From Oscillospiraceae bacterium (GTDB lineage Bacteria > Bacillota > Clostridia > Oscillospirales > Oscillospiraceae), in NCBI GenBank assembly GCA_017535865.1, contig JAFXTM010000059.1, forward strand, positions 40,336-104,335: DNA of 64,000 nt, given 5' to 3'. The notes beneath the pieces were generated by a model. It made no database searches. It saw nothing but the letters and a program-made list of their open reading frames with translations, and was not told where the DNA came from. The translations under genes were made by a program, and so were the position numbers. Each line of letters begins with the position of its first letter. The first letter of the stretch is position 1. Shown here piece after piece: positions 12,103 to 56,272 of this stretch.

Positions 12103-12105
12103 AAT

Positions 12106-12825: not shown

Positions 12826-12830
12826 CCCAC

Positions 12831-12859: not shown

Positions 12860-12892
12860 GACTTGTCTGCTCTTCTGCACGAGGTGTTTTTT

Positions 12893-21949: not shown

Positions 21950-23007
21950 GAACCAGAAACGAGACAAGGCAGATCCGTGTGGGCGGGCTCCCGTTGGGCG
22001 GCGGCGCGCCGGTCACGGTGCAGTCCATGTGCAACACAAGGACATGGGATGTGGAGGCAACGGTCGCGCAGATCAGGGCTTTCCGCAGCGCGGGCTGCGA
22101 TATCGTGCGCCTTGCGATCCCGGACCTGCGTTCCGCAGAGGCGATCCCGGCCATCAAGGAGCAGGTCGATATGCCCCTGGTGGCGGACATCCATTTCGAT
22201 TATAAGCTCGCCCTGATGGCGGCAGAGCGCGGCATCGACAAGATCCGCATCAACCCCGGCAACATCGGCGGCGAGGAGAACGTGAAAGCCGTCGCGGATG
22301 CCTGCCGTTCCCGGCATATCCCGATCCGCATCGGCGTGAATGCCGGCAGCCTCGAAAAGAATCTGCTGGAGAAATACGGCCATCCCTGCCCGGAGGCTAT
22401 GGTGGAGAGCGCGCGCGGCCATGTGGAGCTGCTGACTCGCTTCGGCTTTGAGGATATCTGCCTCTCGCTGAAGTCCTCCACCGTGCCGCTTACGATCGCA
22501 GCCTACCGAATGGCGGCTGAGTGCTTTCCCTATCCGCTGCACATCGGGGTGACCGAGACAGGCACCGAGTGGAACGGCACTATCCAGTCCGCGGTCGGCA
22601 TCGGCACGCTCCTCAGCGAGGGGATCGGCGACACGATCCGCGTCTCCTTGACGGCGGATCCGGTGAAAGAGGTACGCGCCGGGATCGCCATTTTGAAGGC
22701 AGCCGGGCTGCGGAGCGGCGGCGTGCGCTTCATATCCTGCCCCACCTGCGGCCGTACGGAGATCGATTTGATCGGCCTTGCCAAAAGAGTGGAGGAGCAG
22801 GTGAGCTGCCTGGACCGGGACATCACGGTGGCCGTTATGGGCTGTGTGGTGAACGGGCCCGGCGAGGCGCGCGAAGCCGACTACGGCATTGCGGGCGGAA
22901 AAGATCGGGGACTGATCTTTAAAAAGGGGCAGGTCCTCGGTACATATCCCTATGATCGTCTCAGCGATGCGCTGATGGATCTCATTCGCGAGGAAGAGGG
23001 ACTATGA
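21946..23007 (+). CDS. ispG: 4-hydroxy-3-methylbut-2-en-1-yl diphosphate synthase (flavodoxin)
   Basis: VQSMCNT...RINPGNIG...CPTCGRT...GCVVNGPGE motifs. It overlaps rseP by 4 nt. Confidence 0.95.
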   Translation: MRTRNETRQIRVGGLPLGGGAPVTVQSMCNTRTWDVEATVAQIRAFRSAGCDIVRLAIPDLRSAEAIPAIKEQVDMPLVADIHFDYKLALMAAERGIDKIRINPGNIGGEENVKAVADACRSRHIPIRIGVNAGSLEKNLLEKYGHPCPEAMVESARGHVELLTRFGFEDICLSLKSSTVPLTIAAYRMAAECFPYPLHIGVTETGTEWNGTIQSAVGIGTLLSEGIGDTIRVSLTADPVKEVRAGIAILKAAGLRSGGVRFISCPTCGRTEIDLIGLAKRVEEQVSCLDRDITVAVMGCVVNGPGEAREADYGIAGGKDRGLIFKKGQVLGTYPYDRLSDALMDLIREEEGL

Positions 23008-38606: not shown

Positions 38607-38717
38607 GCCGTTGGGCGCCGCTCTCGACACCCCGTGTCCGTTGCCTTGGGCGATCGAGGACGGCTTCTGCGATCTGGATGCCCGGCAGACACGTCTTGAA
38701 AAAACGCGATGCTGTCA

Positions 38718-38746
38718 TTGCGGGAAATGGTGTTCTGTGGTAAGAT
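38718..38746 (+). promoter_or_regulatory. Own promoter for the TIR-like gene
   Basis: TTGCGG, 17 nt, TAAGAT, with TGg extended -10. Confidence 0.4.
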
Positions 38747-38801
38747 AGCTATCATAAATGAACAGATAACGGTTACAGGAAAGAGAAACAAGGGTGATCA
38801 T

Positions 38802-40145
38802 ATGAAAGATAAAGTATTCATCGTGTGGTCCGGCGACTCGTCGGTCGCGCAGAAGGTGAAAAACAGGCTGGAGGGAAACCACAATTACATCTGCCTGATC
38901 GGCGGCGGATTTGGGACACAGGTACAGGCGATGTCTGTCGGAGATACCGTGATCAAGCAAATGAATCTCTGCAATCAGGCCATTGTCCTTTTCCAGAACA
39001 GGCAGACCGGCACGGTGAGCGATAATCTTTTCTTCGAGTTGGGATATGTTGCCGCCTCCTACGGGTGGAAAAAGATCCATTGCATCAGCAGAAAAGGCGA
39101 AAGCATTCTCCTTCCCTCGGATTTTGACAATTCCTTTGTAGAAGCGATCGAGGGGAAAACGGATGATGAATTTGCCGATAATATCGTTGCGTTCTTTTTG
39201 AAGCGGCAAAGACTGTCTTTGGTCGTCAATAAGATGCAGCTGATCAGTAATCGGCATATCATGCATGACATCATCCAGGCGCATTATTCCGAAATGGGCT
39301 CCAAGTGCTCCGACTATGAACTGGCGCAGTATATCCTGTTCTATATGCAGGCGGCGGTCATGTTTCAGGATGAGCCGAAAGTGCTGGAAGAACTCCGGGA
39401 TTTTAAGCGGAAACACAACATGGAATTCTCAAAAGAGATCACGATCGCCGTGAATCTGAGCGTTGCCTTGCTTGAGGTTCAGGTCGGATTGAAAAACGAC
39501 GGCGGTACGGTCTTTCTGGATGAACCGGCTTTTCGAAAGTATTATAACGCCTGCCGGAACATCCTGGATGAGATCGAAGAGGATGCTTCCGGGACCTTCG
39601 ATGAATGGGCAAAGACATTCGCTTCCGAGAATATCGCCTACGCCTGCTGCCACTACGCGGAGAATCCGGGCATATCGGACAGCATGAGAGCAAGCCTCTA
39701 TGAGAGAACGATAAAATACGGCAAGGAAGCCCTGGTCCACATTGAACAGCTGGAAGCGAATACACCGACAAACGAGAACAACGACAGCACAGGCTTGATT
39801 TCCCTGTTCAAGGCGTACGTCTATCGGCACCTGTTCCTCGCCTGCAGATCGATCTGCCGTGAAGAGGCGGGAGAATGGCTGAACAAAGCGCTGAAAGAGA
39901 GAGCGCAGCTTGTCCGGAACTACAACGATTATGCTGTCGATTCAAAATTGTATATGAATTTTGAAATGGAGTATTATCTGATCCTTATAGAGTATCTGAA
40001 CTACTACGGCAGAGACGGGATGGACCCCTTCGACTTTGAAATGAGCTTATCCGAAATCGATGAGTTTATTGCCAAGACCGAACGGAACAATTCGGTCCAT
40101 GTATTCATGAAAGCCATATCGGAACAGAGGAAATCCTTTGAATAG
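38802..40145 (+). CDS. TIR-like (CAP12/PF10137-type) nucleotide-binding domain fused to a C-terminal all-helical domain of about 300 aa; function unknown, candidate defence/NADase effector
   Basis: ATG 38802 follows SD aagggtga. The N-terminal 115 aa follow the PF10137 pattern: KVFIVWSGD...AIVLF...NLFFELGYVAA...KKIHCIS...LLPSDFDN. The conserved Glu (E79) is encoded at 39036-39038. No P-loop and no TM helix. The gene looks more AT-rich than its neighbours. Confidence 0.6.
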   Translation: MKDKVFIVWSGDSSVAQKVKNRLEGNHNYICLIGGGFGTQVQAMSVGDTVIKQMNLCNQAIVLFQNRQTGTVSDNLFFELGYVAASYGWKKIHCISRKGESILLPSDFDNSFVEAIEGKTDDEFADNIVAFFLKRQRLSLVVNKMQLISNRHIMHDIIQAHYSEMGSKCSDYELAQYILFYMQAAVMFQDEPKVLEELRDFKRKHNMEFSKEITIAVNLSVALLEVQVGLKNDGGTVFLDEPAFRKYYNACRNILDEIEEDASGTFDEWAKTFASENIAYACCHYAENPGISDSMRASLYERTIKYGKEALVHIEQLEANTPTNENNDSTGLISLFKAYVYRHLFLACRSICREEAGEWLNKALKERAQLVRNYNDYAVDSKLYMNFEMEYYLILIEYLNYYGRDGMDPFDFEMSLSEIDEFIAKTERNNSVHVFMKAISEQRKSFE

Positions 40146-40330: not shown

Positions 40331-41356
40331 ATGAAACGAACCTCAAAACATAACAGGACCCGAGGGCGGTCGATCCTTTTTTTTGTTCTTTTGCTTCTTG
40401 TACTCGCCGTCCTCCTGCTGCTGCGCCTCGGGCAAGAAAGGGTGAAAGCGGCGCCTGAGATATCGCCGTTTTCTTATGCGGTCCCGTCATCGGCGCCGGT
40501 CGGGACGGAGGCGCCGCCGGAAACGACGGTCAACGCTGAGACGGAGAAAGCAGCGTCGGGCACGGAACAGGAGCCGAAACCGGAGCCGGAGCCGAGAAAA
40601 ACGGGCCGGGCCGGAAGCGGCTATAATGCTGCGACGTATCAGCTCGTGAGCGATATGATCTATATCCGCCGCACCGACGCGCCGGACGGCGACGCACAGA
40701 TTCGCGCGCTGGAACAGCAGCTTCGGGAGGCGGACCCGGAACTGGGCGAGGCTTGGACCGGCATCATGGACTACTGGGAATACGCGAACCGGGAGATGCC
40801 GATCAACACCTCTCTTCCCGATGACCTTCCGCAGGACGACAGCCTCTGCCTGGTCGTGCTCGGTTTCCAGCTCCTCTATGATGGAGACATGGCGCCAGAG
40901 CTGCTCGGCCGCTGTGAACTCGCGCTGCAGTGTGCACGGCAGTACCCGAACGCCTATATCGCCGTGACGGGCGGCGGAACGGCAGGCAAGGACAAGAGCA
41001 TTACTGAGGCGGGCGTGATGGCTGACTGGTTTATCGCGCAGGGGATCGCCCCGGAAAGGATCATCCGGGAGGACGCTTCTCTTACGACGGACCAAAATGC
41101 GATCAACACCTGTGCGATCCTGATTCGCGACTATCCGCAGGTCAGACAGCTTGCAATCATTTCGAGCGACTATCATCTTCCGCTCGGCTGTACGATGTTT
41201 ACCGAGGCGGCGCTTCTCTGCGGCTTTTATCTCGGCGAGGTGCCCTATACGGTCGTCTCCAACGCAGCCTGGGCGACGAATGGCAGCACAATTGGTTACA
41301 AAGGAATGAAAAATCAAGCCTCCTATGTCTGGATCATGGCGGATCCGAAATATTGA
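40331..41356 (+). CDS. YdcF/DUF218-family membrane-anchored protein
   Basis: TM anchor, a Pro/Glu-rich linker, then the DUF218 core CLVVLGFQL...GRCELAL...IAVTGGG...EAGVMADW...TDQNA...IISSDYH. Confidence 0.75.
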   Translation: MKRTSKHNRTRGRSILFFVLLLLVLAVLLLLRLGQERVKAAPEISPFSYAVPSSAPVGTEAPPETTVNAETEKAASGTEQEPKPEPEPRKTGRAGSGYNAATYQLVSDMIYIRRTDAPDGDAQIRALEQQLREADPELGEAWTGIMDYWEYANREMPINTSLPDDLPQDDSLCLVVLGFQLLYDGDMAPELLGRCELALQCARQYPNAYIAVTGGGTAGKDKSITEAGVMADWFIAQGIAPERIIREDASLTTDQNAINTCAILIRDYPQVRQLAIISSDYHLPLGCTMFTEAALLCGFYLGEVPYTVVSNAAWATNGSTIGYKGMKNQASYVWIMADPKY

Positions 41357-46410: not shown

Positions 46411-46426
46411 AAGGAGATGGACGATA

Positions 46427-46714
46427 ATGGCTAAAAAACTGTTTTCCGCGCCTTTCCTCATCCTGAGCGGCTGGGGCGGCGATGGCAGCGACGACGGCGG
46501 CGGCAGCGGCGGCTACACGGACGATCCCTCTGCATGGGATTACAACGAGTGGCTCGAGATCATGGTCGGCGGAGATGACAATGACGGAGACGGGGACATT
46601 GATAAGGGCGACTATATTCTCTGGGCGCTTGCAAATAATATAGATGCCGATACAATCGAGGCTCTGAACCCCGGCTGGGATTCCTATGATCCCACATATT
46701 ATAAAGCAAACTGA
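46427..46714 (+). CDS. 95-aa Gly/Asp-rich acidic protein: N-terminal lasso-leader-like motif plus one EF-hand/dockerin-type Ca2+ loop; candidate precursor/substrate of the downstream cassette
   Basis: SD aaggag lies 10 nt upstream of ATG 46427. Sequence: MAKKLFSAPFLILSGWGGDGSDDGGGSGGYTDD... FSAPFLILSG fits YxxPxLxxxG with F for Y. DNDGDGDIDKGD fits the 12-residue D-x-D-x-D-G-x-I-D-x-x-D loop (46577-46612). Confidence 0.5.
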   Translation: MAKKLFSAPFLILSGWGGDGSDDGGGSGGYTDDPSAWDYNEWLEIMVGGDDNDGDGDIDKGDYILWALANNIDADTIEALNPGWDSYDPTYYKAN

Positions 46715-46731: not shown

Positions 46732-46769
46732 AACAGAATAGCGTGGGATTACTCCCACGCTTTTCTGTT
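46732..46769 (+). terminator. Strong hairpin / attenuating terminator between the small acidic protein gene and the kinase gene
   Basis: 17-bp stem with one mismatch, aacagaatagcgtggga-ttac-tcccacgcttttctgtt. The T-rich tract lies within and after the 3' arm. Confidence 0.65.
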
Positions 46770-46780: not shown

Positions 46781-47524
46781 ATGAAAGATTCTGTATTTGA
46801 AATCATGTATGCCGGGCATGCCCTGCGTTATTCTTTCCACGATGTCAACACGCGCTGGGAGTTCCGGTCTCTGGCCCGGCGATCGAGCGCAGAGACCTGG
46901 GATATCCGGGCGACGAAGGAGCAGCTCGAGCGTACGCGCGCCGTGCTCCCGGAGGACTCCCGGGACGCTTTTGTCGAGTTCCGCGCCCTGATCGGTCTGA
47001 CGAGCAGGGAACTGCTGAAATACGATTGCTGTATTTTCCATGGGGTCTCCTTCGTGTGGAAAGGCGCGGCGTTTCTTTTGACCGCGCCGAGCGGCGTCGG
47101 CAAGAGCACGCAGTTCTTCAACTGGCAGCGGCTGTTTCCCGGGGAGATCGCGATGATCTGCGGGGATATGCCCGTGCTCGAGCGCCGGGAGGACGGCAGC
47201 GTCTGGGCGCACCCCAGCCCCTGGAACGGGAAGGAGCGTCTCGGCGACCGCCGCCTCTGCGGCCCCGTGGCCGGGATCGTCCTGCTCGAGCAGGGGAGTG
47301 AGAACAGTATCTCCCCGCTTTCGCCGCACGACGCGATCACGCCCTTTTTCGGGCAGTTTCTGGTGCGCCCGGAAACGGAGGAGGAGATCCGTGCGCTCGC
47401 GCGTCTGATGGATCAGACGCTGCGCAACGTGCCCCTGTATAAGCTCGTGAATCTCGGCGACGACGCCTCGACCGCGCTCCTGCGCGAGACGCTCTCGCCT
47501 CTCGCGGAAGGAGGGAGCCCATGA
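46781..47524 (+). CDS. HPr kinase/phosphorylase C-terminal-domain-like kinase (HprK-related, RiPP/lasso-associated type)
   Basis: FHGVSFVWKGAAFLLTAPSGVGKSTQ matches the HprK P-loop block HG..V...G.GVLI.G.SG.GKS. There is no N-terminal HprK regulatory domain. It is translationally coupled (ATGA) to the PqqD gene. Confidence 0.7.
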   Translation: MKDSVFEIMYAGHALRYSFHDVNTRWEFRSLARRSSAETWDIRATKEQLERTRAVLPEDSRDAFVEFRALIGLTSRELLKYDCCIFHGVSFVWKGAAFLLTAPSGVGKSTQFFNWQRLFPGEIAMICGDMPVLERREDGSVWAHPSPWNGKERLGDRRLCGPVAGIVLLEQGSENSISPLSPHDAITPFFGQFLVRPETEEEIRALARLMDQTLRNVPLYKLVNLGDDASTALLRETLSPLAEGGSP

Positions 47525-47814
47525 CCGTTTATAAAGGCCGTCCCGGCGTCGTTCTGACGGAGATCGCCGGAGAGTACGTTCTCGTCGCGGCGAAGGCGCT
47601 GAAGGGGGAATGCCCCTATGTGATGCAGCTCAACGAGACCTCGGCCTTCCTCTGGCGTCAGCTGGGCTCCGGCATGAGCCTGGAACAGCTCGGGGAAGCC
47701 GTCGCGGAGGAGTACGAGATCGACGACCCCGCAGCGGCCCGCGAGGCGATCGTGGACTTTATCCGGCAGATGGTCGATCTGCATTATCTTGTGACGGAAG
47801 AACTGCCGTCCTGA
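47521..47814 (+). CDS. PqqD-family peptide chaperone (RiPP recognition element)
   Basis: 97 aa: ...EYVLVA...VMQLNETSAFLWRQLGSGMSLEQLGEAVAEEYEIDDPAAAREAIVDFIRQMVDLHYL follows the PqqD/RRE winged-helix pattern. Confidence 0.75.
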   Translation: MTVYKGRPGVVLTEIAGEYVLVAAKALKGECPYVMQLNETSAFLWRQLGSGMSLEQLGEAVAEEYEIDDPAAAREAIVDFIRQMVDLHYLVTEELPS

Positions 47815-47875: not shown

Positions 47876-48193
47876 ATGTCAAAGAATAAGAAGAAAAAGA
47901 AGAGCGCGGGCGGCGCGGTGATCGTGCTTATCCTGCTCGTGTTGATGCTGGCTGCGCTGCTGGCTGTCAAGTTTTTCGGGATCGGTTCCCCGGCGCCAGC
48001 CGAGGTGACTGCCGCTCCCACCGAAACGCCTGTGGAGGAGACCGCGGTACCCGAGGCGTTGGAAGCGCCCGTCGTCGTGGAGAGCACCCCGGCTCCCACG
48101 CCGATGCAGCCCGGCGATGTGCCGGAGCTCCTCGAGGATGAGGGCGAGATCGAGATCATCATTCCGGACGATATGGAGGGCGAAGGCTTCTGA
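47876..48193 (+). CDS. Small single-pass membrane protein with a poly-Lys N-terminus and an acidic Pro/Glu/Val-rich ectodomain
   Basis: ATG 47876 lies 6 nt after SD aggagga. Sequence: MSKNKKKKKSAGGAVIVLILLVLMLAALLAV...EAPVVVESTPAP...EDEGEIEIIIPDDMEGEGF. Its stop overlaps the next start (TGATG). Confidence 0.5.
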   Translation: MSKNKKKKKSAGGAVIVLILLVLMLAALLAVKFFGIGSPAPAEVTAAPTETPVEETAVPEALEAPVVVESTPAPTPMQPGDVPELLEDEGEIEIIIPDDMEGEGF

Positions 48194-49395
48194 TGCCGGA
48201 GTCGAACGAAACCCGGGCGCTCTTTCTGGATCTGCTGCGCTGCGCGGTGCACGGAGAGAGCTTCGACGGACCGCTCTCTCGTGAGGCCGCGCCTGCTGTG
48301 GCCCGCCTGGCCCGGGAGCACAGCGTGCTCCCCCTGCTCGTTGAAGCGGGGGGAGCGCCTCTGCACGGCTATGCGGCCCACGCCAGGAGACTTACGATCT
48401 CTCAGGCGGGGCGCACAGCCGATTTTCTGCTGCTCTATGCCTTTCTGAATGAGCGTGGCCTGTACCCCGCCGTGATGAAGGGAATCGTGCTGCGCAGCCT
48501 CTATCCGCATCCGGAGCAGCGCGCCTCGACCGACGAGGATCTGCTGGTCCGTTCGGAGGAGTTTCCCCTCTACCACCGCGCCCTGCTGGATTACGGCCTC
48601 GCCCCGGTGAACCCGGATACAGATCTGGGGTCGAGCGATGAGGTCTCCTACGTGGACAAGTCCCGCGGCCTGTACATCGAGGTGCACAAGAACGCCTTCC
48701 CGCCCGACTCCGACATCTACAGGGACCTGGACGCGCTCTTTGCCGGCGCGCTGGACCGCTGCACGACGGTGACGGTCTACGGTCAGCCGATCACGACCCT
48801 CGTGCCGACCGACCATCTGCTTTATCTGCTCTGCCACGCCTTCAAGCACTTCCTGCTCAGTGGTGTCGGCATCCGCCAGGTCTGTGACGTCGGGATGTTC
48901 GCGGAGCGTTATGCGGGCGAGATCGACTGGGCCGCGGTCCGTGAGCGCTGCGAGAGCGTGAGGATCGCGCGGTACAGCGCCGCGCTCTTCCGCATCGCGG
49001 AGCGGCGTCTCGGCTTTGCCATGCCCCCGGCCTTCGCGGATCTGGAGGTCGACGAGAGCGACATGCTCGCGGATATCCTCACGGGCGGCCTCTACGGCAC
49101 AAGCGACGTCAATCGTGCGCACAGCAGCAGGATTACGCGGGACGCCGTCACAGCGCAGAAGCAGCAGCGCCGCAGATCCGGCGCACTTGCCGCGCTGTTC
49201 CCTCCATTTTCCAGCATGTGCTCCAGATTTCCATATCTGTGTCGCTTCCCCTGGTTGCTGCCTGTTGCCTGGGTGCAGCGTGTGTGGAACTATCTGTTTC
49301 GCCGTCGCCACCGTGCCCGGGCTAATCCCGCCGAGAGCGTACGGATCGGCAGGGAGCGCGTTCAACTCCTGCGGGAGTACGGGATCATCGATTAG
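48193..49395 (+). CDS. Uncharacterised nucleotidyltransferase family protein (PF14907 / NTP_transf_5-like)
   Basis: 400 aa. VMKGIVLRSLYPHPEQRASTDEDLLV (G-x-x...D-x-D Pol-beta-like NTase core) followed by ...IEVHKNAF... matches the family seen next to HprK-like and PqqD genes. Confidence 0.68.
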   Translation: MPESNETRALFLDLLRCAVHGESFDGPLSREAAPAVARLAREHSVLPLLVEAGGAPLHGYAAHARRLTISQAGRTADFLLLYAFLNERGLYPAVMKGIVLRSLYPHPEQRASTDEDLLVRSEEFPLYHRALLDYGLAPVNPDTDLGSSDEVSYVDKSRGLYIEVHKNAFPPDSDIYRDLDALFAGALDRCTTVTVYGQPITTLVPTDHLLYLLCHAFKHFLLSGVGIRQVCDVGMFAERYAGEIDWAAVRERCESVRIARYSAALFRIAERRLGFAMPPAFADLEVDESDMLADILTGGLYGTSDVNRAHSSRITRDAVTAQKQQRRRSGALAALFPPFSSMCSRFPYLCRFPWLLPVAWVQRVWNYLFRRRHRARANPAESVRIGRERVQLLREYGIID

Positions 49396-49731: not shown

Positions 49732-51516
49732 ATGGATAAAGAGACAAACGGAAACAAAGCATTCTTTAACTCGGTGCACACGCTTCGCATGCGTATTAAG
49801 GACGGGACCTTTAAGGAGATCCTGGACGACTGGAGATGGATCTTTTCCTACAGCAAGCGCTACAAGGGAGCGATTGCATTTTACGTCTTTCTGGGGATAT
49901 TCAGCACCTCGCTCGGTCTCGTGGCAAGCGTGGCCAGCAAATACATGATCGATATCATCACCGGGTATCAACGGGAAAAGCTGGGAATATTCATCGCGCT
50001 GACGTTGGGCAGCGCTGCTTTCAGCCTGACTTTCTCCAATCTGATCAAACGGATTACGAAAAAACTGAGCATCGATATCAACAACGACATCCAGGCGGAT
50101 ATTTTCGACCAGATCATCGACGTCGACTGGAAGGCGATCAACAAGTATTCCAACGGCGATATCCTCAACCGCTTCAATAACGACGTCGGCACGGTCAGCA
50201 GCAACGCGATCAGCTGGCTGCCCTCCATCATCATTTCGATCTACAATTTTATTGTCACCTTCCTGCTTATCTGGCATTACAACAAGGTGATGTCGCTCCT
50301 GGCTTTTGCCAGCGCGCCGATCATGCTGCTCATGTCCAAGTACCTGATCACCAAGCAGCGTGAGTACTCGAAAAAGGTTCGTGAGACCAGCAGCGAGATG
50401 ATGAGCTTTGAAGTGGAGACCTTCTATAATTTCGACGCCATCAAGTCCTTCGGCATCATGAAGACCTACGGGGTCAAGCTGCGGGACTTGCAGCAGAAGT
50501 TCAAGAAGATCAGCCTGGAACACAATATGTTCACGATCAAGACCGGCGTGTTCATGTCGATCCTCGGGATGATCATTCAATACACCGCTTTTGGCTATTG
50601 CCTCTATCTGTTGTGGAGCACCCAGATCACCTACGGTACGATGACGCTCTTTCTCGAGCAACGCGGCCGTCTGGCCAACGCCTTTAACAGCGTGATTGGC
50701 ATCATTCCCAGCTTCCTGACGAGTTCGGTTTCCGCCCACCGTATCCGCGAACTGATCGAACTGCCCAGAGAAAAGCACATCCCCGAGAGCGAGGCTCTGC
50801 GCGCGCTCGCACGGGACGGATTCGAGGTCCGTTTCCAGGACGTGGACTTTTCGTATTCGGAAGACCAACGGGTCATCAGCGATTCGGATTTCCGCGCGTC
50901 TCCGGGTGAGATAGTGGCGCTGGTCGGGCCCTCCGGCGAGGGCAAGACCACGATGATCCGCCTGATCCTCGGACTGATCTATCCCGAGCAGGGGAACGCG
51001 TTTCTTGTTGCCTCGGACGGCAGCCGCGTCGAGATGAACGCGGACAGCCGCTTCCTTTTCTCTTATGTTCCGCAGGGCAACGCAATCCTGGCCGGTACCG
51101 TCGCAGAGAACCTGCGCATGGTGAAAGAGGACGCAACGGACGCCGAGATCGAAGAAGCACTGAAAATCGCCTGCGCCTGGGACTTTGTCTCCCGGCTGCC
51201 GGAAGGGATTAACAGCAAGGTTGGCGAGCGCGGCCGTGGCTTTTCTGAGGGGCAGGCACAGCGTATTGCCATTGCCCGCGCAGTGCTGCGCGATGCTCCC
51301 ATCATGCTGCTGGATGAGGCGACCTCCGCGCTGGACGTCACCACCGAGCGGCAGGTCCTGCGCAACATCATTCGTCAGCGACCTAACAAGACCTGCATCG
51401 TGACGACACACCGGCCTACGGTGCTGAATATGTGCCAGCGTGTCTACCGGGTGATGAATACCCGTGTGACCGAACTGAGCGAGGAAGAATCCGGCCACAT
51501 GGTGATGGATTTCTGA
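49732..51516 (+). CDS. ABC exporter, fused TMD-NBD half-transporter (MsbA/McjD-like)
   Basis: 594 aa: six-TM ABC_membrane domain, then GPSGEGKTT, FSEGQAQRIAIARA, MLLDEATSALD. No C39 peptidase domain. Confidence 0.85.
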   Translation: MDKETNGNKAFFNSVHTLRMRIKDGTFKEILDDWRWIFSYSKRYKGAIAFYVFLGIFSTSLGLVASVASKYMIDIITGYQREKLGIFIALTLGSAAFSLTFSNLIKRITKKLSIDINNDIQADIFDQIIDVDWKAINKYSNGDILNRFNNDVGTVSSNAISWLPSIIISIYNFIVTFLLIWHYNKVMSLLAFASAPIMLLMSKYLITKQREYSKKVRETSSEMMSFEVETFYNFDAIKSFGIMKTYGVKLRDLQQKFKKISLEHNMFTIKTGVFMSILGMIIQYTAFGYCLYLLWSTQITYGTMTLFLEQRGRLANAFNSVIGIIPSFLTSSVSAHRIRELIELPREKHIPESEALRALARDGFEVRFQDVDFSYSEDQRVISDSDFRASPGEIVALVGPSGEGKTTMIRLILGLIYPEQGNAFLVASDGSRVEMNADSRFLFSYVPQGNAILAGTVAENLRMVKEDATDAEIEEALKIACAWDFVSRLPEGINSKVGERGRGFSEGQAQRIAIARAVLRDAPIMLLDEATSALDVTTERQVLRNIIRQRPNKTCIVTTHRPTVLNMCQRVYRVMNTRVTELSEEESGHMVMDF

Positions 51517-51537: not shown

Positions 51538-52287
51538 ATGATCGATCTGCATACACATGTTCTCCCTGGCATAGACGACGGCTCGACCGACATGGATATG
51601 TCGATGGAAATGCTGTTTATTGCGGCGGAAAGCGGCGTTGAGACGCTTGTCACCACACCGCACTGCAACATCCCCGGCGAGTTTGACAACTATGCCGACA
51701 AAGAAATGGAGCTCCTCTGGAACGGGCTCGAACAGGAGAGAGAACGCGCGGGTATTCCGATCCGACTCTGCCGGGGTATGGAAATCTTTGCTACGCCTGA
51801 CCTTCCGGAACTTCTGAGCGAAGAGAGAGTATGGACGCTGAACGGTACAAACTATTTTCTGACGGAGTTTGCTTTCGATGAGGACCCGGAATACTGCTGG
51901 CGTATCCTGGAAGAATGTGAGAGTCAGGGCTTTCGGCCAATCATTGCACACCCCGAACGGTACTTTTTTCTTCAGGATGATTTGCAGATCGCGTACGAAT
52001 GGTGTACCGCCGGTTATGGCTTGCAGCTGAACAAGGGCAGCCCGCTCGGCCGCTTCGGCCCCGAGGTGCAGCAAACGGCCATTGAGCTCCTGAATCACGG
52101 ATTGATCGCCTGTGTGGCGAGCGATGCGCACTATCCCCATCGGCGCAGCACGTATATGGGGGAGATTCGCCGCTTCCTGGAGGAGACTTACGGAGAAGAC
52201 TGCCTGTACCTCCTTCTGGAGGAAAACCCCGCACGTATCCTGCGGGGAGACAATTTGCTGGGAGTTGAACCGATCCCGTTTCTATAA
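51538..52287 (+). CDS. PHP-family protein-tyrosine phosphatase (CpsB/YwqE type)
   Basis: MIDLHTHVLPGIDDGS...TPH...AHPERY...ASDAH motifs. Confidence 0.85.
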   Translation: MIDLHTHVLPGIDDGSTDMDMSMEMLFIAAESGVETLVTTPHCNIPGEFDNYADKEMELLWNGLEQERERAGIPIRLCRGMEIFATPDLPELLSEERVWTLNGTNYFLTEFAFDEDPEYCWRILEECESQGFRPIIAHPERYFFLQDDLQIAYEWCTAGYGLQLNKGSPLGRFGPEVQQTAIELLNHGLIACVASDAHYPHRRSTYMGEIRRFLEETYGEDCLYLLLEENPARILRGDNLLGVEPIPFL

Positions 52288-52310: not shown

Positions 52311-53183
52311 ATGAGACGATTGAGGATATTCATTGTTCTGTTTTCCTTGTCGGTTTTTGCCGTCTATGCGATTAACAGCATACAGGAGAGAATGACCTCG
52401 GACTATGTGCCCCCGGTCATTCATGCGGAGTACGATGCGATCCAGTCGAGCGTTGCCGTTACGGATCAGGAACTGCTGACCGGCATGACAGCTTCCGACA
52501 ATCTCGATGGAGACGTTTCGGATTCGCTGGTCGTTGTTTCCAAGTCGAAGTTTATCTTCCGCGGGATGCGCCGCATCAAGTATGCGGCCTTCGACAAGAA
52601 CAACAATGTAGGCGTATATGAGCGCATGCTGACGTATACGGACTATGTGTCCCCGCATTTTTCACTCAGTCAGCCGCTCCGTTTTGTCGACGGAAACTCC
52701 GATGTTGATTATCTGAAAAACGTTTCAGCTTATGATTGCCTCGACGGGGATATCTCCAAGCAGATCATGATTACCTATGGGGAAAACCGGAGGATCAGCG
52801 ATACGACCAAGAGCCAGACGATCAATCTGCAGGTTACGAACAGCGCCGGAGATACGGCGACGCTTCAGCTTGAGGCGTTGCGGCAGGATTACACCTCCTA
52901 CAACCAGTATGCGCCTTCGCTGAGCGAGTATCTGGTATATACCGGCATCGGACAGCCGCTGACTCTTTCGTCCTATGTGAACGGGGTCTGGACGGGAAAC
53001 ACGGTCCGTACCTTCGCCGACACCGGCTATGATCCCAACACGGATGTGAGTATTGACTCCAGTTCCGTCAATTATAACGCACCGGGCGTTTATCCCGTCC
53101 CGTTCCAGCTTAGCCGCCTGAAAAATGACGGCGTGCGGGAATATCTGGGGACCAATACGCTTTTTGTGGTTGTGGAGGGTTGA
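52311..53183 (+). CDS. Membrane-anchored protein with Ig-like (DUF5011-like) extracellular domains; function unknown
   Basis: TM anchor, then repeated ...D.LDGD(V/I)S... motifs typical of bacterial Ig-like/DUF5011 modules. ATG 52311 lies 6 nt after SD agaggaag. Confidence 0.45.
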   Translation: MRRLRIFIVLFSLSVFAVYAINSIQERMTSDYVPPVIHAEYDAIQSSVAVTDQELLTGMTASDNLDGDVSDSLVVVSKSKFIFRGMRRIKYAAFDKNNNVGVYERMLTYTDYVSPHFSLSQPLRFVDGNSDVDYLKNVSAYDCLDGDISKQIMITYGENRRISDTTKSQTINLQVTNSAGDTATLQLEALRQDYTSYNQYAPSLSEYLVYTGIGQPLTLSSYVNGVWTGNTVRTFADTGYDPNTDVSIDSSSVNYNAPGVYPVPFQLSRLKNDGVREYLGTNTLFVVVEG

Positions 53184-53184
53184 A

Positions 53185-54834
53185 ATGAACGAAGATAGAG
53201 AATTCACCTCCCCCTTGGATCGTGTCGACCTATACAGCATGCTCCGGGACGTGCTGCGCAATCTGTGGGCAATCGTGATCGGAGCGCTGGCTGTTGCGCT
53301 GATCGTCAATATGTCGGTCAAGTCGGATTTCCAGAAGACCTATTCAACCAAAACGACTTTTGTTGTGACCTCCCGCACATCGAGCAACTACACCTACAGC
53401 AATCTGAACGCGGCATCCTCAATGGCCACCAGCTTCTCCAACATCCTCAACAGCCGCCTGCTCCAGAAAAAAGTCTGCCAGGATCTGGGCCTTGAGAGCT
53501 TCAACGCAAAGACGAGCGCCAACGTCATCAAGGGCACAAATCTGATGACGCTTCAGGTGACGTCGGATACGCCGCGAAACGCCTATATGATCATTCGCTC
53601 GATCATGAACAACATCGGCGACCTCACGCCTTACGTCTCGTCGGATATGGTGATGGAAGTCCTGCAGGAACCGAGTGTTCCGACGGGCGCGGACGCCTCT
53701 TTTTCGGCCGCCCGTCAGACAAAAAAAGCGTTTATGGGCGTCGCCGCCGCGCTGGTCCTGGTTTTCATGTATCTCTCGTATCAGAAGGAGACCATCAAGA
53801 GCGATAAAGATCTGGAGGACAAGCTGGACGCGCGCTGCCTCGGCGTGGTGTACCATGACAGCCTGTATCCATCCCTGCGTGCGTTCGTGCAGGGAAAGAA
53901 GAACAGGCATCTTGTTACGGATCTGACAGCGAAGTTCGAGTATGTCGAGCGCTTCAAGAAGATCGGCGCAAACGTATCCAGCAACGCGCGCCGCCGGGAG
54001 GCGCGGATCATTGCGGTCACGAGCGTGCGCGAGCATGAGGGCAAGTCCACGGTAGCCGCCAATCTTGCGCTTTCCCTGTCCCAGCAGTCCTATAAGGTCC
54101 TGCTGATCGACGGCGATCTCCGCCGCCCTACGCTTCAGACTCTGTTCCTTCGAAAGAAGGACCGCCTGCCGGCGGCACTGGGAGATCTGCTGGCCGGGAA
54201 AGCAACGATGATGGATGCCCTCTGGTATGACAAACGACGGAACATCTATCTTCTCCTCAATAAAAAGAACTATTCGAACTCCACGGATATTGTCTCTTCT
54301 CCCAGCATGAACCAGCTTTTGACGTCTTCTGCCGAGCATTTCGATTACATCGTGATCGACACGCCGCCCATGTCTCTCATGGCGGACGCCGAGGCCCTGG
54401 TCGACCAGTCGGATCTGAGTGTGCTCGTTGTCAAGTATGACACCGTTCTGGCCCCGGATCTGAACGATGCGATCGACTCGCTCCGCGACTGCCACGCCTT
54501 TTTTGCCGGATGCGTTTTGAATGAAGTACGGGCGCTGCCCGGAGCCCGTCGTGCGGTCGGCGGCTATGGCGGCTATGGGCGTTACCGGTACAGCCGTCGT
54601 TACGGCGAATACAGCACGTACGGGAAATACGGCGGCAGCAGCGCTTCGTCAGGCGAAAGGTCTTCGAGCCGGAGTGGGACCCACACATCAAGCCGAAGCG
54701 GAACGTCCGGTCGTTCACGAACAGGCGCATCTTACGCTCCCAGGAAAAGCAGTACCGTGGGTACGGTGAAAAAAGAATCCGCCAAGGCGGGTAAGAGCGA
54801 GGCTCCCACCGGCTCAGGCGAAGTGAAAAAGTGA
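53185..54834 (+). CDS. Fused Wzz-like modulator / BY-tyrosine kinase (copy 1) with Tyr cluster and Ser/Arg/Gly-rich tail
   Basis: Two TM helices flanking a Wzz-like loop. Kinase core VTSVREHEGKSTVAANLA, LLIDGDLRRP, YIVIDTPP. Y-cluster GGYGGYGRYRYSRRYGEYSTYGKYGG, then about 70 aa of S/R/G-rich tail. Confidence 0.85.
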   Translation: MNEDREFTSPLDRVDLYSMLRDVLRNLWAIVIGALAVALIVNMSVKSDFQKTYSTKTTFVVTSRTSSNYTYSNLNAASSMATSFSNILNSRLLQKKVCQDLGLESFNAKTSANVIKGTNLMTLQVTSDTPRNAYMIIRSIMNNIGDLTPYVSSDMVMEVLQEPSVPTGADASFSAARQTKKAFMGVAAALVLVFMYLSYQKETIKSDKDLEDKLDARCLGVVYHDSLYPSLRAFVQGKKNRHLVTDLTAKFEYVERFKKIGANVSSNARRREARIIAVTSVREHEGKSTVAANLALSLSQQSYKVLLIDGDLRRPTLQTLFLRKKDRLPAALGDLLAGKATMMDALWYDKRRNIYLLLNKKNYSNSTDIVSSPSMNQLLTSSAEHFDYIVIDTPPMSLMADAEALVDQSDLSVLVVKYDTVLAPDLNDAIDSLRDCHAFFAGCVLNEVRALPGARRAVGGYGGYGRYRYSRRYGEYSTYGKYGGSSASSGERSSSRSGTHTSSRSGTSGRSRTGASYAPRKSSTVGTVKKESAKAGKSEAPTGSGEVKK

Positions 54835-54841
54835 GACTGTT

Positions 54842-56272
54842 ATGAACGAAAATCTTTCAAGTCATTCCGAAGAGCTGGAAAAGATCAATATCATCTCGTT
54901 CCTGAACGATCTTCTGCACCGTCTGCGGAGCTTCTGGTGGGTGATTCTTCTGCTCACGGTTGCATTTGGCGCGGCATCCTACTATCGAACCAGCACGCAT
55001 TACAGCCCCTCCTACACGGCGGAAGCGACCGTTTCCGTTGAGATCGTGAACGGTGGCTCTAACGCCAACCGCAACACGGCCGAACAGTTGGGCGTCATCT
55101 TCCCGTATATTCTGACCAGCGGTGCCCTGTCGGATGTTATTGCTGCGGATCTGGGACTGAGCAACGTTCCGGGGTCTATTCAGGTAAGCTGTATCAGCGG
55201 TACAAACCTTTTGACGATTACTGTGACCGGCTCCAACCCCAATAATGTCTATGCGGTGCTCCAGTCCATGCTCAAGAATTATCCGGAAGTCGCACAGTTT
55301 GTCGTTGGGCAGACCATGCTCACCGTTATCGATGACAGCGGCATTCCCGAGGATACGGGACGCACCTCCGTTCTGCGCGGCTCTCTGACCAGAGGCGCGG
55401 TGGTGGGCTTCCTGCTTGGCGCTGTCCTGCTGATGGTCTACACCGTGACGACCCGAACGATCCGTGATGAAGAGGATCTCCGCACGTTCCTCAATGTTCC
55501 CTGCTTGGGCACGCTTCCCTCGTATAAAAAGAAACGCCGGAAAAAGAATGTCAATACCGAGATCAACATTCTCAACGACCGGAATGGCAGCAACAGCGAT
55601 TACATTGAAAGTATGCGCCTGATTCGTACCCGTCTTGAGCGCCAGCTCGGGGACAAGCAGGTGCTGATGGTCACAAGCTCGATCCCTGGGGAAGGAAAAT
55701 CCACGGTCGCGGCTAATCTGGCGATCTCCATGGCCCGAAAAGGAAAGAGCGTTATCCTGATCGACTGCGATCTTCGAAATCCAACGCAGGGGAAAGTTTT
55801 TGGACTCAAAGGAAAGTATCCCGGTCTTGTACCTGTTCTGCAGGGTAAGGCCAAATTGGAAGACGCGCTGTATGAGGTTACCGATCACGGCGAGCCGATC
55901 GGCCTGACGCTTCTTCCGGGGGCCGACCATGAATCCAAGCTTGTCGAAATCCTCGGCAGCGAGGAGATGAGAGAACTGCTGGAGAAGCTCAAAAAGCGTG
56001 TGGACGTGGTCATCCTCGATTCACCGCCTTCCGCCATGCTGGTCGACGCGATGATCATGGTTCAGCACGTGGACGGCGTGGTATATGTGGTCATGAGCGA
56101 CTTTGCAAAGCGCAGCTTTATCTTCCGCGGCATGGATGAGTTGACGTCAAACGGCGTCGAAGTACTCGGCTGCATCCTCAACGGCGGAAAAACCCGTTCA
56201 AAAGGTTACGGGTATTACGGTTCAAAAGGGTACGGATATTATAGTACAGGTACAAAAGCAAAAAGCGAATAA
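54842..56272 (+). CDS. Fused Wzz-like modulator / BY-tyrosine kinase (copy 2)
   Basis: Same architecture as copy 1: VTSSIPGEGKSTVAANLA, ILIDCDLRNP, VVILDSPP; C-terminal Y-cluster KGYGYYGSKGYGYYS. Confidence 0.85.
   Translation: MNENLSSHSEELEKINIISFLNDLLHRLRSFWWVILLLTVAFGAASYYRTSTHYSPSYTAEATVSVEIVNGGSNANRNTAEQLGVIFPYILTSGALSDVIAADLGLSNVPGSIQVSCISGTNLLTITVTGSNPNNVYAVLQSMLKNYPEVAQFVVGQTMLTVIDDSGIPEDTGRTSVLRGSLTRGAVVGFLLGAVLLMVYTVTTRTIRDEEDLRTFLNVPCLGTLPSYKKKRRKKNVNTEINILNDRNGSNSDYIESMRLIRTRLERQLGDKQVLMVTSSIPGEGKSTVAANLAISMARKGKSVILIDCDLRNPTQGKVFGLKGKYPGLVPVLQGKAKLEDALYEVTDHGEPIGLTLLPGADHESKLVEILGSEEMRELLEKLKKRVDVVILDSPPSAMLVDAMIMVQHVDGVVYVVMSDFAKRSFIFRGMDELTSNGVEVLGCILNGGKTRSKGYGYYGSKGYGYYSTGTKAKSE

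Follow-up and report, generated by a model that had tools for sequence, protein, structure and literature searches.

The window, a 64,000-nucleotide stretch of Oscillospiraceae DNA, contains a cassette of genes arranged around a small acidic protein of 95 residues. The order is a giant secreted protein, the small protein, a hairpin, an HprK-like kinase, a PqqD-family RiPP recognition element (RRE), in most loci a membrane protein that we call the stalk, an NTP_transf_5 nucleotidyltransferase, an MsbA-like exporter and a capsule locus. The coordinates of these features are collected in Table 1.

The small ORF is a real, conserved gene. It translates exactly to the protein described in an earlier, sequence-only reading of this DNA, and the motif positions given there are correct: FSAPFLILSG spans residues 6-15 (46442-46471), G24 precedes D32 in the Gly-rich stretch, and DNDGDGDIDKGD spans residues 51-62. 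Its AAGGAG lies directly 3' of the stop codon of the 1536-residue gene. A longer in-frame ORF from position 46310 is unsupported; the methionine of MAKK is the start in 80/83 homologues. The family consists of at least 76 clusters of unannotated proteins of ~ 90 residues from rumen and gut Clostridia. All conservation counts refer to an alignment of 83 small-protein homologues, in which W42, D62 and W66 are invariant. On account of its Asp-rich loops, the search also drew in an unrelated protein of 1196 residues with DUF7507/DUF11 repeats (P0016). Related loci were gathered with the kinase alignment as query; the alignment of the whole small-protein family has no sufficiently conserved stretch.

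The giant protein combines a signal peptide, PVVEE repeats and Ig, VWA, DUF7604 and DUF7601 domains with a family-specific, β-rich C-terminal domain of ~ 266 residues; it contains neither an LPXTG motif nor a transmembrane (TM) anchor. Only the C-terminal domain and an N-proximal domain of ~ 130 residues are common to the giants of other loci. Residues 1271-1536 are modeled by AlphaFold with a pLDDT of 92.6, and a PDB search gave no match at E < 0.1 (best E 0.1). The giant gene lies 5' of the small gene in essentially every locus, at gaps of 14-36 nt.

The small gene is followed by the hairpin, which in the window has a 9-bp GC-rich stem and a T-run (46740-46761). A hairpin occupies this position in 25 of 27 distinct intergenic regions; its consensus stem has 15 bp, with compensatory changes in 10 of the 15 pairs (21 loci). 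The 10-mer ATAGCGTGGG is found at the hairpin site only, in 17/46 loci. An Rfam scan of the window gave no match, and the hairpin is not a known RNA family. In this window the hairpin and the start codon of the kinase gene are only about 20 nt apart, too close for a promoter to fit between them. A promoter consensus follows the hairpin in three loci.

The sole NCBIfam match of the kinase is ScmC (E 3.8e-4, below cutoff), and its homologues carry a precomputed PF27840 ScmC annotation. It shares 32% identity with its counterpart in L024, an SpI-containing cluster of the LPP (linear polyphosphorylated peptide) type; that counterpart matches ScmC at 2.8e-7 and HprK_rel_A at 1.4e-3. HprK was not found in a profile search of the PDB with the kinase. 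Together, the sub-threshold HMM matches and the P-loop argue weakly for an HprK-like kinase. For the PqqD protein, the best NCBIfam models are lasso PqqD chaperones, with a weak match to ScmD, and the best PDB matches are TbiB1, LppB (9x8z) and PbaB1 (9x90). Residues N33, Y60 and F74 of LppB are kept as N38, Y65 and F80, and the D70 equivalent is Ala76.

The stalk has a poly-Lys segment, a single TM helix, a linker rich in Pro and Glu, and the conserved C-terminal motif DExGxΦxIIΦPxDxxGxG[FL], and matches no peptidase or other Pfam or NCBIfam family. It is present in most loci. In L019 and L040 there is no space for it between the PqqD and nucleotidyltransferase genes, and in L018, L021, L029 and L037 the stalk HMM is negative though the gap exists. 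The possibility that it is a cryptic leader peptidase was rejected, as it has no S26/SipW match, whereas the same search detects SpI in L024. The nucleotidyltransferase has LppN and PsmN as analogues. The exporter consists of ABC_membrane and ABC_tran domains, with MsbA_rel as the best NCBIfam model, and has no peptidase domain. For an MsbA-type exporter, 10 kDa would be a large cargo, which weighs against the small protein being a substrate of the cassette. The ABC-CpsB-Wzz block adjoins the cassette in 14 distinct loci.

When the kinase alone was used for searching, a member of the small family was found beside it in 11/13 genome loci, always just 3' of a giant secreted protein, and in 17/18 metagenome loci with at least 300 nt of upstream sequence. 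One contig carries two complete tandem cassettes. L007 and L008 hold the giant and small genes, with no kinase, PqqD or nucleotidyltransferase gene within 10 kb. The giant, not the enzymes, is the tightest partner of the small gene, an observation that also runs counter to a substrate role.

Table 1. Features of the cassette and of the small protein, in window coordinates
Feature	Position	Strand	Basis or detail
Giant secreted protein, 1536 aa	41800-46410	+	Pfam domains
Ribosome-binding site AAGGAG	46411-46416	+	10 nt 5' of ATG; read from sequence
Small acidic protein, 'A' (predicted cassette substrate)	46427-46714	+	95 aa, pI 4.05
Leader-like motif K4-L-F6-S-A-P9-F-L-I-L13, predicted to bind the RRE	46436-46465	+	Conservation; predicted disorder; PqqD covariation
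Gly-rich segment G24-G-G-S27-G-G-Y-T-D-D33-P34, predicted acceptor	46496-46528	+	Family conservation
Folded helical domain (predicted), residues 36-95	46532-46711	+	AlphaFold2, 83-sequence alignment, pLDDT about 88-93
Dockerin/EF-hand-type loop D51 to D62, then Y63-x-x-W66	46577-46612	+	
Hairpin (terminator/attenuator) between small gene and enzyme genes	46738-46763	+	Terminator scan; conservation
HprK-like/ScmC-like P-loop kinase, 'K', 247 aa	46781-47524	+	Walker A APSGVGKST
PqqD-family RRE, 'B', 97 aa	47521-47814	+	Pfam PqqD PF05402, 7.4e-13
Stalk membrane protein	47876-48193	+	Alignment of 5 orthologues
NTP_transf_5 nucleotidyltransferase, 'N', 400 aa	48193-49395	+	Pfam PF14907, 3.8e-40
MsbA-like ABC exporter, 'D', 594 aa	49732-51516	+	Pfam and NCBIfam
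Capsule locus 3' of exporter: CpsB; Wzz/tyrosine-kinase-like; EpsG; glycosyltransferases	CpsB 51538-52287; Wzz/tyrosine-kinase-like 53125-56272		

Conserved parts of the small protein

The FxxPxL block near the N terminus is one of the two regions in which the family varies least, and the calcium loop is conserved as well. The block has the consensus KK-x-[F/Y]-x(1-2)-P-x-Φ-Φ-Φ: Pro9 is present in 80/80 ungapped homologues, position 11 is hydrophobic in 81/81, and a Phe stands 2 or 3 residues N-terminal to the Pro in 77 of the 83, with FxP spacing in place of FxxP in about half the family. In the window protein the block fits the lasso-class motif [Y/W]xxPx[L/V/I/F/A] as F6-S-A-P9-F-L11, with Phe replacing Tyr/Trp; LPP and lasso crystal structures show leaders of this class bound to RREs. 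The earlier proposal of a lasso-type leader stands in part: the aromatic/Pro/hydrophobic block is conserved and lies beside a PqqD gene, but the Gly and the Thr at -2 are not conserved, as Gly15 occurs in only 30/83 members and Ser/Thr at position 21 in only 48/83.

The pattern [FYW]xxPx[LIVM]xxxG alone is not above chance in the 64-kb window (7 observed versus about 10 expected), so that its significance comes from conservation and context only. Residues 1-33 are predicted to be disordered (AlphaFold pLDDT 47-59). In L022 the same N-terminal motif (MKFDPNFVDF) is found at the same position on an unrelated body of 65 residues, which fits a modular leader. The small gene is the only ORF of the cassette in which a leader was recognized.

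The leader aromatic covaries with the RRE. Among 25 distinct small-protein/PqqD pairs, 21 Phe leaders and a single Trp leader pair with A/V/M/I at the PqqD D70-equivalent (position 76), and both Tyr leaders (L021 and L044) pair with Asp, as in LppB and TbiB1. In the LppB crystal structure, Asp70 hydrogen-bonds the hydroxyl of the leader Tyr, and Asn33 is needed for binding (PMC13381572). The change of Asp70 to Ala76 in the RRE matches the change of Tyr to Phe in the leader. The two Tyr/Asp pairs may stem from one evolutionary event.

Downstream of the leader-like motif, the Gly-rich segment follows the family consensus GGG[S/T]GQS-T-T-D-P, with G24 in 75, G26 in 79, S/T27 in 82 and D33 in 74 of the 83 members. 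The spacing from Pro9 to S/T27 is 18-20 residues in 60/73 members, and Ser27 is the predicted modification site. In LPP, the phospho-Ser is 15 residues C-terminal to the leader Pro, and LppK left an S3T variant unphosphorylated (PMC13381572). Site 27 is Thr in 48/83 members, which, given the inactivity of LppK on S3T, counts against the proposed phosphorylation of this site.

The C-terminal domain is predicted to contain helices at residues 39-45, 60-69, 74-80 and 89-94, and the calcium loop sits between the first two (AlphaFold, pLDDT about 90). Residues D51, D53, D55, G56, I58, D59 and D62 occupy loop positions 1, 3, 5, 6, 8, 9 and 12. Translated in six frames, the 64-kb window contains a single instance of the pattern D-x-[DN]-x-[DN]-G-x-[ILV]-[DNST]-x-x-[DE], and 50 shuffles contain none. 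Across the 83 homologues, position 1 is acidic in 80, positions 3 and 5 are D/N in 74 and 77, and positions 6, 8 and 9 are conserved in 43, 54 and 80; the Asp at position 12 is present in 83/83, Y63 in 82 and W66 in 83. The earlier assignment of an EF-hand/dockerin loop is borne out by this conservation of the liganding positions and by the flanking helices of the model. There is only one loop per protein. Pfam matches are sub-threshold, with Dockerin_1 in 11/83 (best E 0.01) and EF-hand_1 in 7/83 (best 0.0018), and the window protein itself matches neither. Foldseek returned no PDB relatives of the small protein, and a profile search of PDB sequences gave noise only. From the loop, we infer that the C-terminal domain binds calcium.

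Comparison with known systems

The LPP clusters of Bacillota (LppA/K/B/S/D/N; Popov et al., Nat Commun, May 2026; PMC13381572) encode precursors of 35-200 residues with a YxxP leader, a variable C-terminus and a capsule-locus context. The sequence-only reading's statement that no described precursor joins elements such as those seen here is outdated, as these precursors have been published (PMC13381572). The cassette resembles LPP clusters in its HprK-like kinase, discrete PqqD RRE, NTP_transf_5 protein, MsbA-like exporter and adjoining capsule locus, and the gene order A-K-B-[x]-N/D is found in both. Both have an N-terminal leader of the form aromatic-xx-Pro-x-hydrophobic and a hydroxyl residue about 15-20 residues past the Pro, and an LPP precursor may also be long (35-200 residues), with a variable C-terminus. 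The window kinase is homologous to that of the SpI-bearing locus L024; a precursor was sought at this locus and none was identified.

There are also differences. A SipW-like SpI (LppS, an archaeal-type leader peptidase) is the defining feature of LPP clusters (PMC13381572), whereas the cassette has none and the non-enzymatic TM/Pro-rich stalk is usually in the LppS position. No S26/SipW match was found among the cassette proteins of the window, L002, L009 and L010, whereas the same test finds the SpI of L024 (TIGR02228, 3.8e-6), and the cassette encodes no leader peptidase of any kind, which speaks against reading the small protein as an LPP-like substrate. Phe (FxxP/FxP) replaces Tyr in the family leader, and A/V/M stand in the RRE where LPP clusters have the conserved Asp70. 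Compared with the LPP consensus YxxPxVLxHQxIxFETxxS, the family has only [F/Y]x(1-2)PxΦΦ; HQxIxFET is absent, GGG[S/T]GQSTTDP stands instead, and the S/T lies 18-20 residues past the Pro versus 15 in LppA. The C-terminus is a conserved folded domain with a calcium loop, a giant secreted protein is always 5' of the cassette and is proposed to be co-transcribed with it, and the cassette occurs in Clostridia of rumen and gut (Oscillospiraceae and relatives), with Bacilli as the LPP hosts. Calcium, EF-hand, dockerin, giant surface proteins and Oscillospiraceae are unmentioned in the LPP paper (PMC13381572).

In the phosphorylated and phosphoglycosylated Firmicutes lasso peptides paeninodin (PadeK) and pseudomycoidin (PsmK/PsmN), HPr-kinase-like enzymes (poly)phosphorylate Ser and an NTP_transf-type enzyme adds hexose to the phosphate (PMC8498205, PMC6993621). 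These clusters share with the cassette a PqqD-type B1 RRE, an HPr-kinase-like enzyme, an NTP_transf-type enzyme and an ABC exporter, but the cassette has neither a lasso cyclase nor a B2 protease. Moreover, it is a C-terminal Ser that is modified in the lasso peptides, whereas the C-termini of the small family are variable and mostly not Ser, and the substrate here would be a 10-kDa protein with a folded domain.

With dockerin type I segments, the small protein shares a 12-residue loop having D1, D/N3, D/N5, G6, a hydrophobic residue at 8, D/N/T at 9 and Asp at 12 rather than the Glu of EF-hands, followed by an aromatic-rich helix, and the loop is predicted to be flanked by two helices. However, the loop here is single, in contrast to the two repeated segments of dockerins and the usual pairing of EF-hands; no Pfam model matches at threshold, no cohesin was identified, and there is no structural match in the PDB.

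In the HPr-rel-A system and the SynChlorMet cassette (ScmC/ScmD) of NCBIfam, a P-loop protein related to HprK is paired with a chaperone of the PqqD family; to our knowledge, no substrate has been assigned to either. The window kinase matches ScmC and the PqqD protein matches ScmD, all far below curated cutoffs, but the cassette lacks radical-SAM/SPASM enzymes. By analogy only, an acidic, Gly/Asp-rich, predicted calcium-binding protein beside an ABC exporter recalls RTX/type I substrates, and calcium-dependent folding after export would rationalize the pairing of loop and exporter. Unlike those substrates, the small protein has no RTX nonapeptide repeats and no C-terminal secretion signal, and the host is Gram-positive.

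Substrate reading and its rivals

We consider it fairly likely that the small protein is the RRE-recruited substrate of an LPP-like modification cassette and is phosphorylated or phosphoglycosylated near Ser27. Residues 1-33, predicted to be disordered, bear the lasso/LPP-type motif F6-x-x-P9-x-L11. Judging from the covariation and the LppB crystal structure, this motif would bind as a β-strand in the cleft of the adjacent PqqD RRE, which would present GGG-S27-GG, 18-20 residues downstream, to the HprK-like kinase. By analogy to LppK, PadeK and PsmK, the kinase would phosphorylate Ser/Thr, possibly several times, and the NTP_transf_5 protein may, as PsmN suggests, add a sugar or a nucleotide-derived group to the phosphate. 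With no gene for a leader peptidase in the cassette, the small protein probably keeps its tag. The product probably leaves the cell through the neighboring MsbA-like ABC pump. The C-terminal 60 residues, predicted to form the helical calcium-loop domain, would fold or bind a partner in calcium-rich surroundings. The small gene is presumably transcribed together with the upstream anchorless giant, and the conserved hairpin would attenuate read-through into the enzyme genes, giving the high substrate-to-enzyme ratio typical of RiPP operons.

It is unlikely that the small protein is instead chiefly a structural partner of the giant (an adaptor, anchor or assembly factor), with the kinase, PqqD and nucleotidyltransferase set acting elsewhere and the conserved N terminus contacting the giant's C-terminal domain or the stalk. 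The 14-36-nt adjacency of the giant and small genes is the most invariant link, kept even in L007 and L008 where the enzyme genes are not nearby. Between the small gene and the enzyme genes lies a strong terminator, and the giant, which has no known anchor, ends in a conserved, confidently folded domain of no known fold. Such a partnership nevertheless leaves unexplained the covariation of the leader aromatic with an RRE pocket residue, the match of the motif to an RRE-binding class and the occurrence of the motif on a different body in L022, and the cassette yielded no second ORF with a leader.

Very unlikely is an ordinary Sec-secreted calcium-binding or dockerin-like protein that merely neighbors a PqqD cluster. 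Dockerin-like loops are common among secreted proteins of rumen Clostridia, and the N terminus MAKKLFSAPFLILSG is mildly hydrophobic after two lysines. However, a Sec h-region was taken as at least about 7 hydrophobic residues after a basic n-region, and the small protein falls short: it has no more than 4 hydrophobic residues in a row. The longest runs across the family have a median of 4 and never exceed 6, whereas the signal peptide of the giant reaches 9. Two homologues, P0002 (which starts MAKKSFSKPRLYGWGGG) and P0008, have charged residues within the hydrophobic stretch, Pro9 is invariant and unusual for an h-region, and synteny and RRE covariation speak against chance adjacency. There is also no lipobox Cys in the small protein. 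A Sec signal or lipoprotein was therefore rejected, and the weak Sec signal that the earlier reading offered as an alternative is improbable given how short these runs are throughout the family.

A lasso precursor, in which the leader would be cleaved near residue 23 and one of Gly24-26 cyclized onto Asp32 or Asp33, is scarcely credible. FxxPxLxxxG is present in the window protein with Gly24 and Asp32 nine residues apart; G24, G26 and D33 are conserved at spacings of 8-10 residues, and the PqqD protein scores highest with lasso B1 models. The reading fails because the cyclase and the B2 protease are missing: neither an Asn-synthase-like cyclase nor a transglutaminase-like B2 protein turned up in the cassette, among the window's large ORFs or at about 35 related loci, and the lasso ring proposed earlier falls with them. 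The stalk, without a family match, is the one cassette protein left unassigned. Asn_synthase had no match in the cassette or in any window ORF of at least 400 residues, and the remaining genes of the conserved cassette at the about 35 loci are all otherwise accounted for, with no cyclase among them. In addition, the Thr at -2 is absent, a Gly at +9 (Gly15) is found in only 30/83 homologues, and the 'tail' would be a folded domain of 60 residues. Finally, a chance ORF, for which only the small size and the low-complexity Gly/Asp stretch speak, can be dismissed in view of a family of 76 clusters in which W42, D62 and W66 never vary, a strong ribosome-binding site, a confident AlphaFold domain and a conserved position in the cassette.

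A possible role in surface assembly

The substrate and structural-partner readings are not mutually exclusive, and the calcium-loop domain and the always-adjacent giant suggest a role at the cell surface. Published speculation on the role of LPP includes a link to capsule or biofilm (PMC13381572). More tentatively, and with a probability that we judge to be low, the cassette could be a surface-assembly system in which the RRE-guided kinase and nucleotidyltransferase phosphorylate or phosphoglycosylate a calcium-folding adaptor that retains its leader; once exported, the adaptor would link the anchorless giant adhesin to capsule, wall or stalk. It would act through the conserved C-terminal domain of the giant, a part of the proposal that is equally tentative. 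If this were true, LPP-type RiPP machinery would be structural in surface display rather than serving antibiotic production or signaling.

Three features distinguish the Clostridial variant: the missing leader peptidase, a folded calcium-loop protein as probable substrate, and the fixed link to the giant and to the start of a capsule locus. Together they lead to a testable functional hypothesis, namely that the enzyme set modifies a surface-assembly adaptor. RRE-dependent modification would then reach beyond short peptides and include a protein of 10 kDa whose leader is probably retained. The analysis also defines three unannotated families, the small protein, the C-terminal domain of the giant and the stalk, which are abundant in rumen and gut Oscillospiraceae, where adhesins matter for attachment to fiber or host. 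Lastly, the covariation of Phe/Ala versus Tyr/Asp provides support from natural variation for the leader-discrimination rule suggested by the LppB structure.

The small protein and its family

The small gene is a real gene and a member of a family. Its 95-residue product, MAKKLFSAPFLILSGWGGDGSDDGGGSGGYTDDPSAWDYNEWLEIMVGGDDNDGDGDIDKGDYILWALANNIDADTIEALNPGWDSYDPTYYKAN, is strongly acidic (pI 4.05; 20 Asp and Glu versus 4 Lys and Arg). A word-indexed search returned only two relatives; an exhaustive HMMER search of cluster representatives recovered 15 of ~90 residues, and a profile search extended the family to 76 clusters, all from rumen or gut metagenomes and Oscillospiraceae-type metagenome-assembled genomes (MAGs). 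No Pfam match and no informative name is attached to any of the 76.

Conservation was counted on an 83-sequence alignment. The N terminus follows M-A-K-K-x-F-x(1-2)-P-x-Φ-Φ-Φ, with Pro 9 present in 80/80 sequences and a hydrophobic residue at position 11 in 81/81. A Gly-rich segment, GGG[S/T]GQSTTDP, is also conserved, with Ser or Thr at position 27 in 82/83. Trp 42, the Ca loop and D62-Y63-x-x-W66 are invariant or almost so, and Trp 77 and Asn 81 are conserved too; conservation is poor for Gly 15 (30/83) and for a hydroxyl side chain at position 21 (48/83). Translated in six frames, the window contains the Ca-loop pattern once, and none of 50 shuffles contains it. The loose leader pattern, [FYW]xxPx[LIVM]xxxG, is at chance level (~10 expected, seven observed), and therefore weight must rest on conservation and context. 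The sequence-only reading had described both the N-terminal motif and the Ca loop; its motif coordinates all agree with the translation, and the alignment confirms the two features as real and conserved.

The small protein is predicted to have a leader region that is disordered and, after it, a Ca-loop domain that is folded. AlphaFold2, supplied with the 83-sequence alignment, predicts disorder for residues 1-33 (pLDDT 47-59) and a confident four-helix domain for residues 36-95 (pLDDT ~88-93), in which the Ca loop sits between helices 39-45 and 60-69. Neither Foldseek nor profile search found a PDB relative, and Pfam matches were sub-threshold only (Dockerin_1 in 11/83 members, EF-hand in 7/83).

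Gene order of the cassette and its hairpin

Features of the cassette in the window
Feature	Position	Description
Giant gene	directly 5′ of small gene	1536 aa; signal peptide, Ig, VWA, DUF7604 and DUF7601 domains
Giant, N-proximal shared domain		residues 292-434
Giant, C-terminal shared domain	45610-46407	residues 1271-1536; beta-rich
Ribosome-binding site	10 nt 5′ of small gene	AAGGAG; immediately 3′ of giant stop codon
Small gene	46427-46714 (+)	95 aa
Hairpin	46740-46761 (conserved site 46738-46763)	GC-rich, with T-run; 3′ of small gene
Kinase	46781-47524	P-loop protein, 247 aa; sole family match ScmC (HprK-related)
PqqD	47521-47814	PqqD-family RiPP recognition element (RRE)
Stalk protein	47876-48193	poly-Lys, one TM helix, Pro-rich linker, conserved C-terminal peptide
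Nucleotidyltransferase	48193-49395	NTP_transf_5
ABC exporter	49732-51516	MsbA-like
CpsB and capsule locus	from 51538 on	

The cassette is conserved as a unit, and contigs that encode homologues keep the gene order of the window. Public genomes and metagenomes were searched with the kinase alone, and the loci were annotated by HMMs from the cassette proteins. In 11/13 genome loci a family member lies directly 3′ of a giant gene and adjoins the kinase and PqqD genes; the order giant, small protein, kinase, PqqD holds in 10 of these 11, and at L015 the giant comes after the kinase and PqqD genes. Of the 18 metagenome loci in which the upstream DNA reaches at least 300 nt, 17 have giant, small protein and kinase, the exception (L039) having a divergent upstream ORF, and those with enough downstream DNA run on into PqqD, the stalk where present, and the nucleotidyltransferase. 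In 14 distinct loci the cassette is bordered by ABC exporter, CpsB and Wzz-type genes. One Oscillospiraceae contig (L009, = L012; 45-13146) carries two complete tandem cassettes, each with its own giant, small protein, kinase, PqqD, stalk and nucleotidyltransferase genes, and a response-regulator gene between them.

The only parts of the giants shared across loci are the N-proximal domain (~130 aa) and the C-terminal domain (~260 aa). The latter is modeled by AlphaFold as a confident fold (pLDDT 92.6) for which no PDB match was found. The middle part is swapped among loci, with VWA, Ig and DUF7601 domains in the window and Flg_new repeats elsewhere. No LPXTG motif or TM anchor is present in any of the giants, nor was any recognizable anchor found in the 1536-residue protein.

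The stalk protein ends in a conserved peptide, DExGxΦxIIΦPxDxxGxG[FL], and its linker varies greatly in length (~40-120 aa). Further family members are encoded at L009 (1412-1852 and 11398-11958) and L010 (11360-11785); at L019 and L040 the gap between the PqqD and nucleotidyltransferase genes is too small for a stalk gene.

Of 27 distinct intergenic regions 3′ of the small gene, 25 contain a strong hairpin, which has a consensus stem of 15 bp, compensatory changes in 10/15 pairs and no Rfam match. The 10-mer at its core, ATAGCGTGGG, occurs in 17/46 loci, at the hairpin site only, and is absent elsewhere in ~480 kb of locus sequence. The primary sequence (ATAGCGTGGG...CCACGCTAT) is conserved across loci whose proteins are merely 35-60% identical. 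Since the hairpin is more conserved than a generic terminator needs, it may also serve for recognition by a protein or an RNase. It is well recognized that RiPP operons tend to carry a stem-loop 3′ of the precursor gene. In the window the kinase start codon comes only ~20 nt after the hairpin, so the enzyme genes must be expressed by read-through; three loci have a TTGACA-17-TATAAT promoter 3′ of the hairpin instead. As an attenuator, the hairpin would keep the substrate and giant abundant and the enzymes scarce.

Correspondence with LPP clusters

The Gly-rich stretch of the small protein had been likened to a lasso ring. This idea fails, as lasso enzymes are absent: the larger ORFs of the window include neither an Asn-synthase-like cyclase nor a transglutaminase-like protease. 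The statement that nothing similar had been described has been overtaken by the report of linear polyphosphorylated peptides (LPPs) in Bacillota (Popov et al., Nat Commun 2026; PMC13381572). LPP clusters, often housed in capsule loci, comprise a precursor (LppA), an HprK-like kinase (LppK), a discrete RRE (LppB), a SipW-like leader peptidase (LppS), an MsbA-like exporter (LppD) and an NTP transferase (LppN). LppA spans 35-200 residues, with an N-terminal YxxPxVLxHQxIxFETxxS and a variable C terminus. LppK places several phosphates onto core Ser 3, LppS cleaves after T-1 with LppB required, and LppN showed no activity in a heterologous host (PMC13381572).

The window cassette shares this gene set and order, without a leader peptidase; in the peptidase position it has the non-enzymatic membrane stalk protein. 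The two cluster types are tied together by L024 (Acutalibacteraceae MAG, 9629-12899), an LPP-type gene set whose kinase, the most distant one found, is a homologue of that in the window and is accompanied by PqqD, a 157-aa archaeal-type SipW-like signal peptidase I (TIGR02228, 3.8e-6) and an ABC exporter. L024 has neither giant nor small protein, and a search for a precursor gene there found none. A second PqqD gene lies ~4 kb downstream.

The sequence-only reading correctly linked the small protein to the PqqD protein. In crystal structures 9x8z and 9x90, a [Y/W]xxP leader sits in the RRE cleft, where LppB Asp 70 hydrogen bonds with the leader Tyr hydroxyl and Asn 33 fixes the kink at the Pro (PMC13381572). 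LppB, TbiB1 and PbaB1 can all be aligned with the PqqD protein of the window; with LppB numbered as in that paper, N33, Y60 and F74 are kept as N38, Y65 and F80, and D70 is replaced by Ala 76. The leader and RRE covary across 25 distinct small-protein/PqqD pairs. The Phe leaders number 21, two of them (L017 and L027) read by eye; these and the lone Trp leader are paired with Ala, Val, Met or Ile at the D70 equivalent, and the two Tyr leaders (L021, MRKRQYQSPVFL; L044, MAKKKYLTPILL) with Asp, the residue that LppB and TbiB1 also have; in the remaining pair (L029) the leader was not identified. If the N terminus of the small protein is the RRE ligand, such covariation is to be expected from the published mechanism of recognition; it is supportive rather than conclusive, because the Tyr leaders of L021 and L044 may have a common origin. 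The conserved Ser or Thr follows the invariant Pro at a spacing of 18-20 residues in 60/73 members and of 15 in LppA, which fits an enzyme reading at a set spacing from the RRE anchor. At L022 (Anaerovoracaceae MAG, 8003-8200), the slot between giant and kinase is occupied by a 65-aa ORF that shares the N-terminal motif (MKFDPNFVDF) but has an unrelated body without the Ca-loop domain, suggesting a modular leader on differing bodies.

The small protein as a putative substrate

The small protein is probably an RRE-recruited substrate of an LPP-like cassette; we hold the details with much less confidence. Its leader would bind PqqD, the kinase may (poly)phosphorylate it at or near Ser 27, and the nucleotidyltransferase could extend the phosphate. 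In related lasso peptides, a C-terminal Ser is phosphorylated by PadeK and PsmK, and the nucleotidyltransferase PsmN puts a hexose on the phosphate. The small protein would keep its leader, be exported by the ABC pump and have a Ca-dependent extracellular role connected with the giant.

Several points weigh against the substrate reading. Thr outnumbers Ser at the predicted site (48 versus 34), and LppK rejected Thr (PMC13381572). The kinase assignment is weak. The giant and the small protein are also more tightly linked than the small protein and the enzymes: L007 and L008 have giant and small protein, with the enzymes absent within 10 kb.

As an RRE-recruited substrate, the small protein would belong to a new, Clostridial and peptidase-less variant, whose predicted substrate is a small folded Ca-loop protein and which is firmly tied to giant surface proteins without an anchor and to a capsule locus. 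The LPP dataset was seeded on the peptidase, and the few Clostridial entries in the supplement all have one; the main text mentions no Ca, EF-hand or dockerin domain, giant surface protein or Oscillospiraceae (PMC13381572). The features of the variant provide a concrete hypothesis for the purpose of the LPP-type enzyme set.

A multi-TM Sulfatase-family (LtaS-like) protein of 730-746 residues is encoded directly 3′ of the nucleotidyltransferase at L009 (13329-15569) and L010 (13080-15272), a hint that phospho-alcohol transfer may take place at the cell surface. Immediately 5′ of the giant gene lie genes for a TIR-domain protein (CAP12/Pycsar-type, 478 aa; 38709-40145) and a DUF218 protein (40331-41356), a pair also found in L002. 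Farther upstream, a 795-aa protein with Lamin-tail, Fn3-associated/CHB_HEX_C and CotH kinase domains (27003-29390) is encoded immediately 3′ of the polymerase genes. There, a PolC-type DNA polymerase III alpha gene is split by one in-frame TAG (25182-25184; …NPPEIV*KRVDVELK…) between ORFs 23004-25184 and 25191-26999. TAG is a normal stop elsewhere in the window (12/48 ORFs); read-through is possible, and the in-frame TAG is probably a sequencing error or strain mutation.
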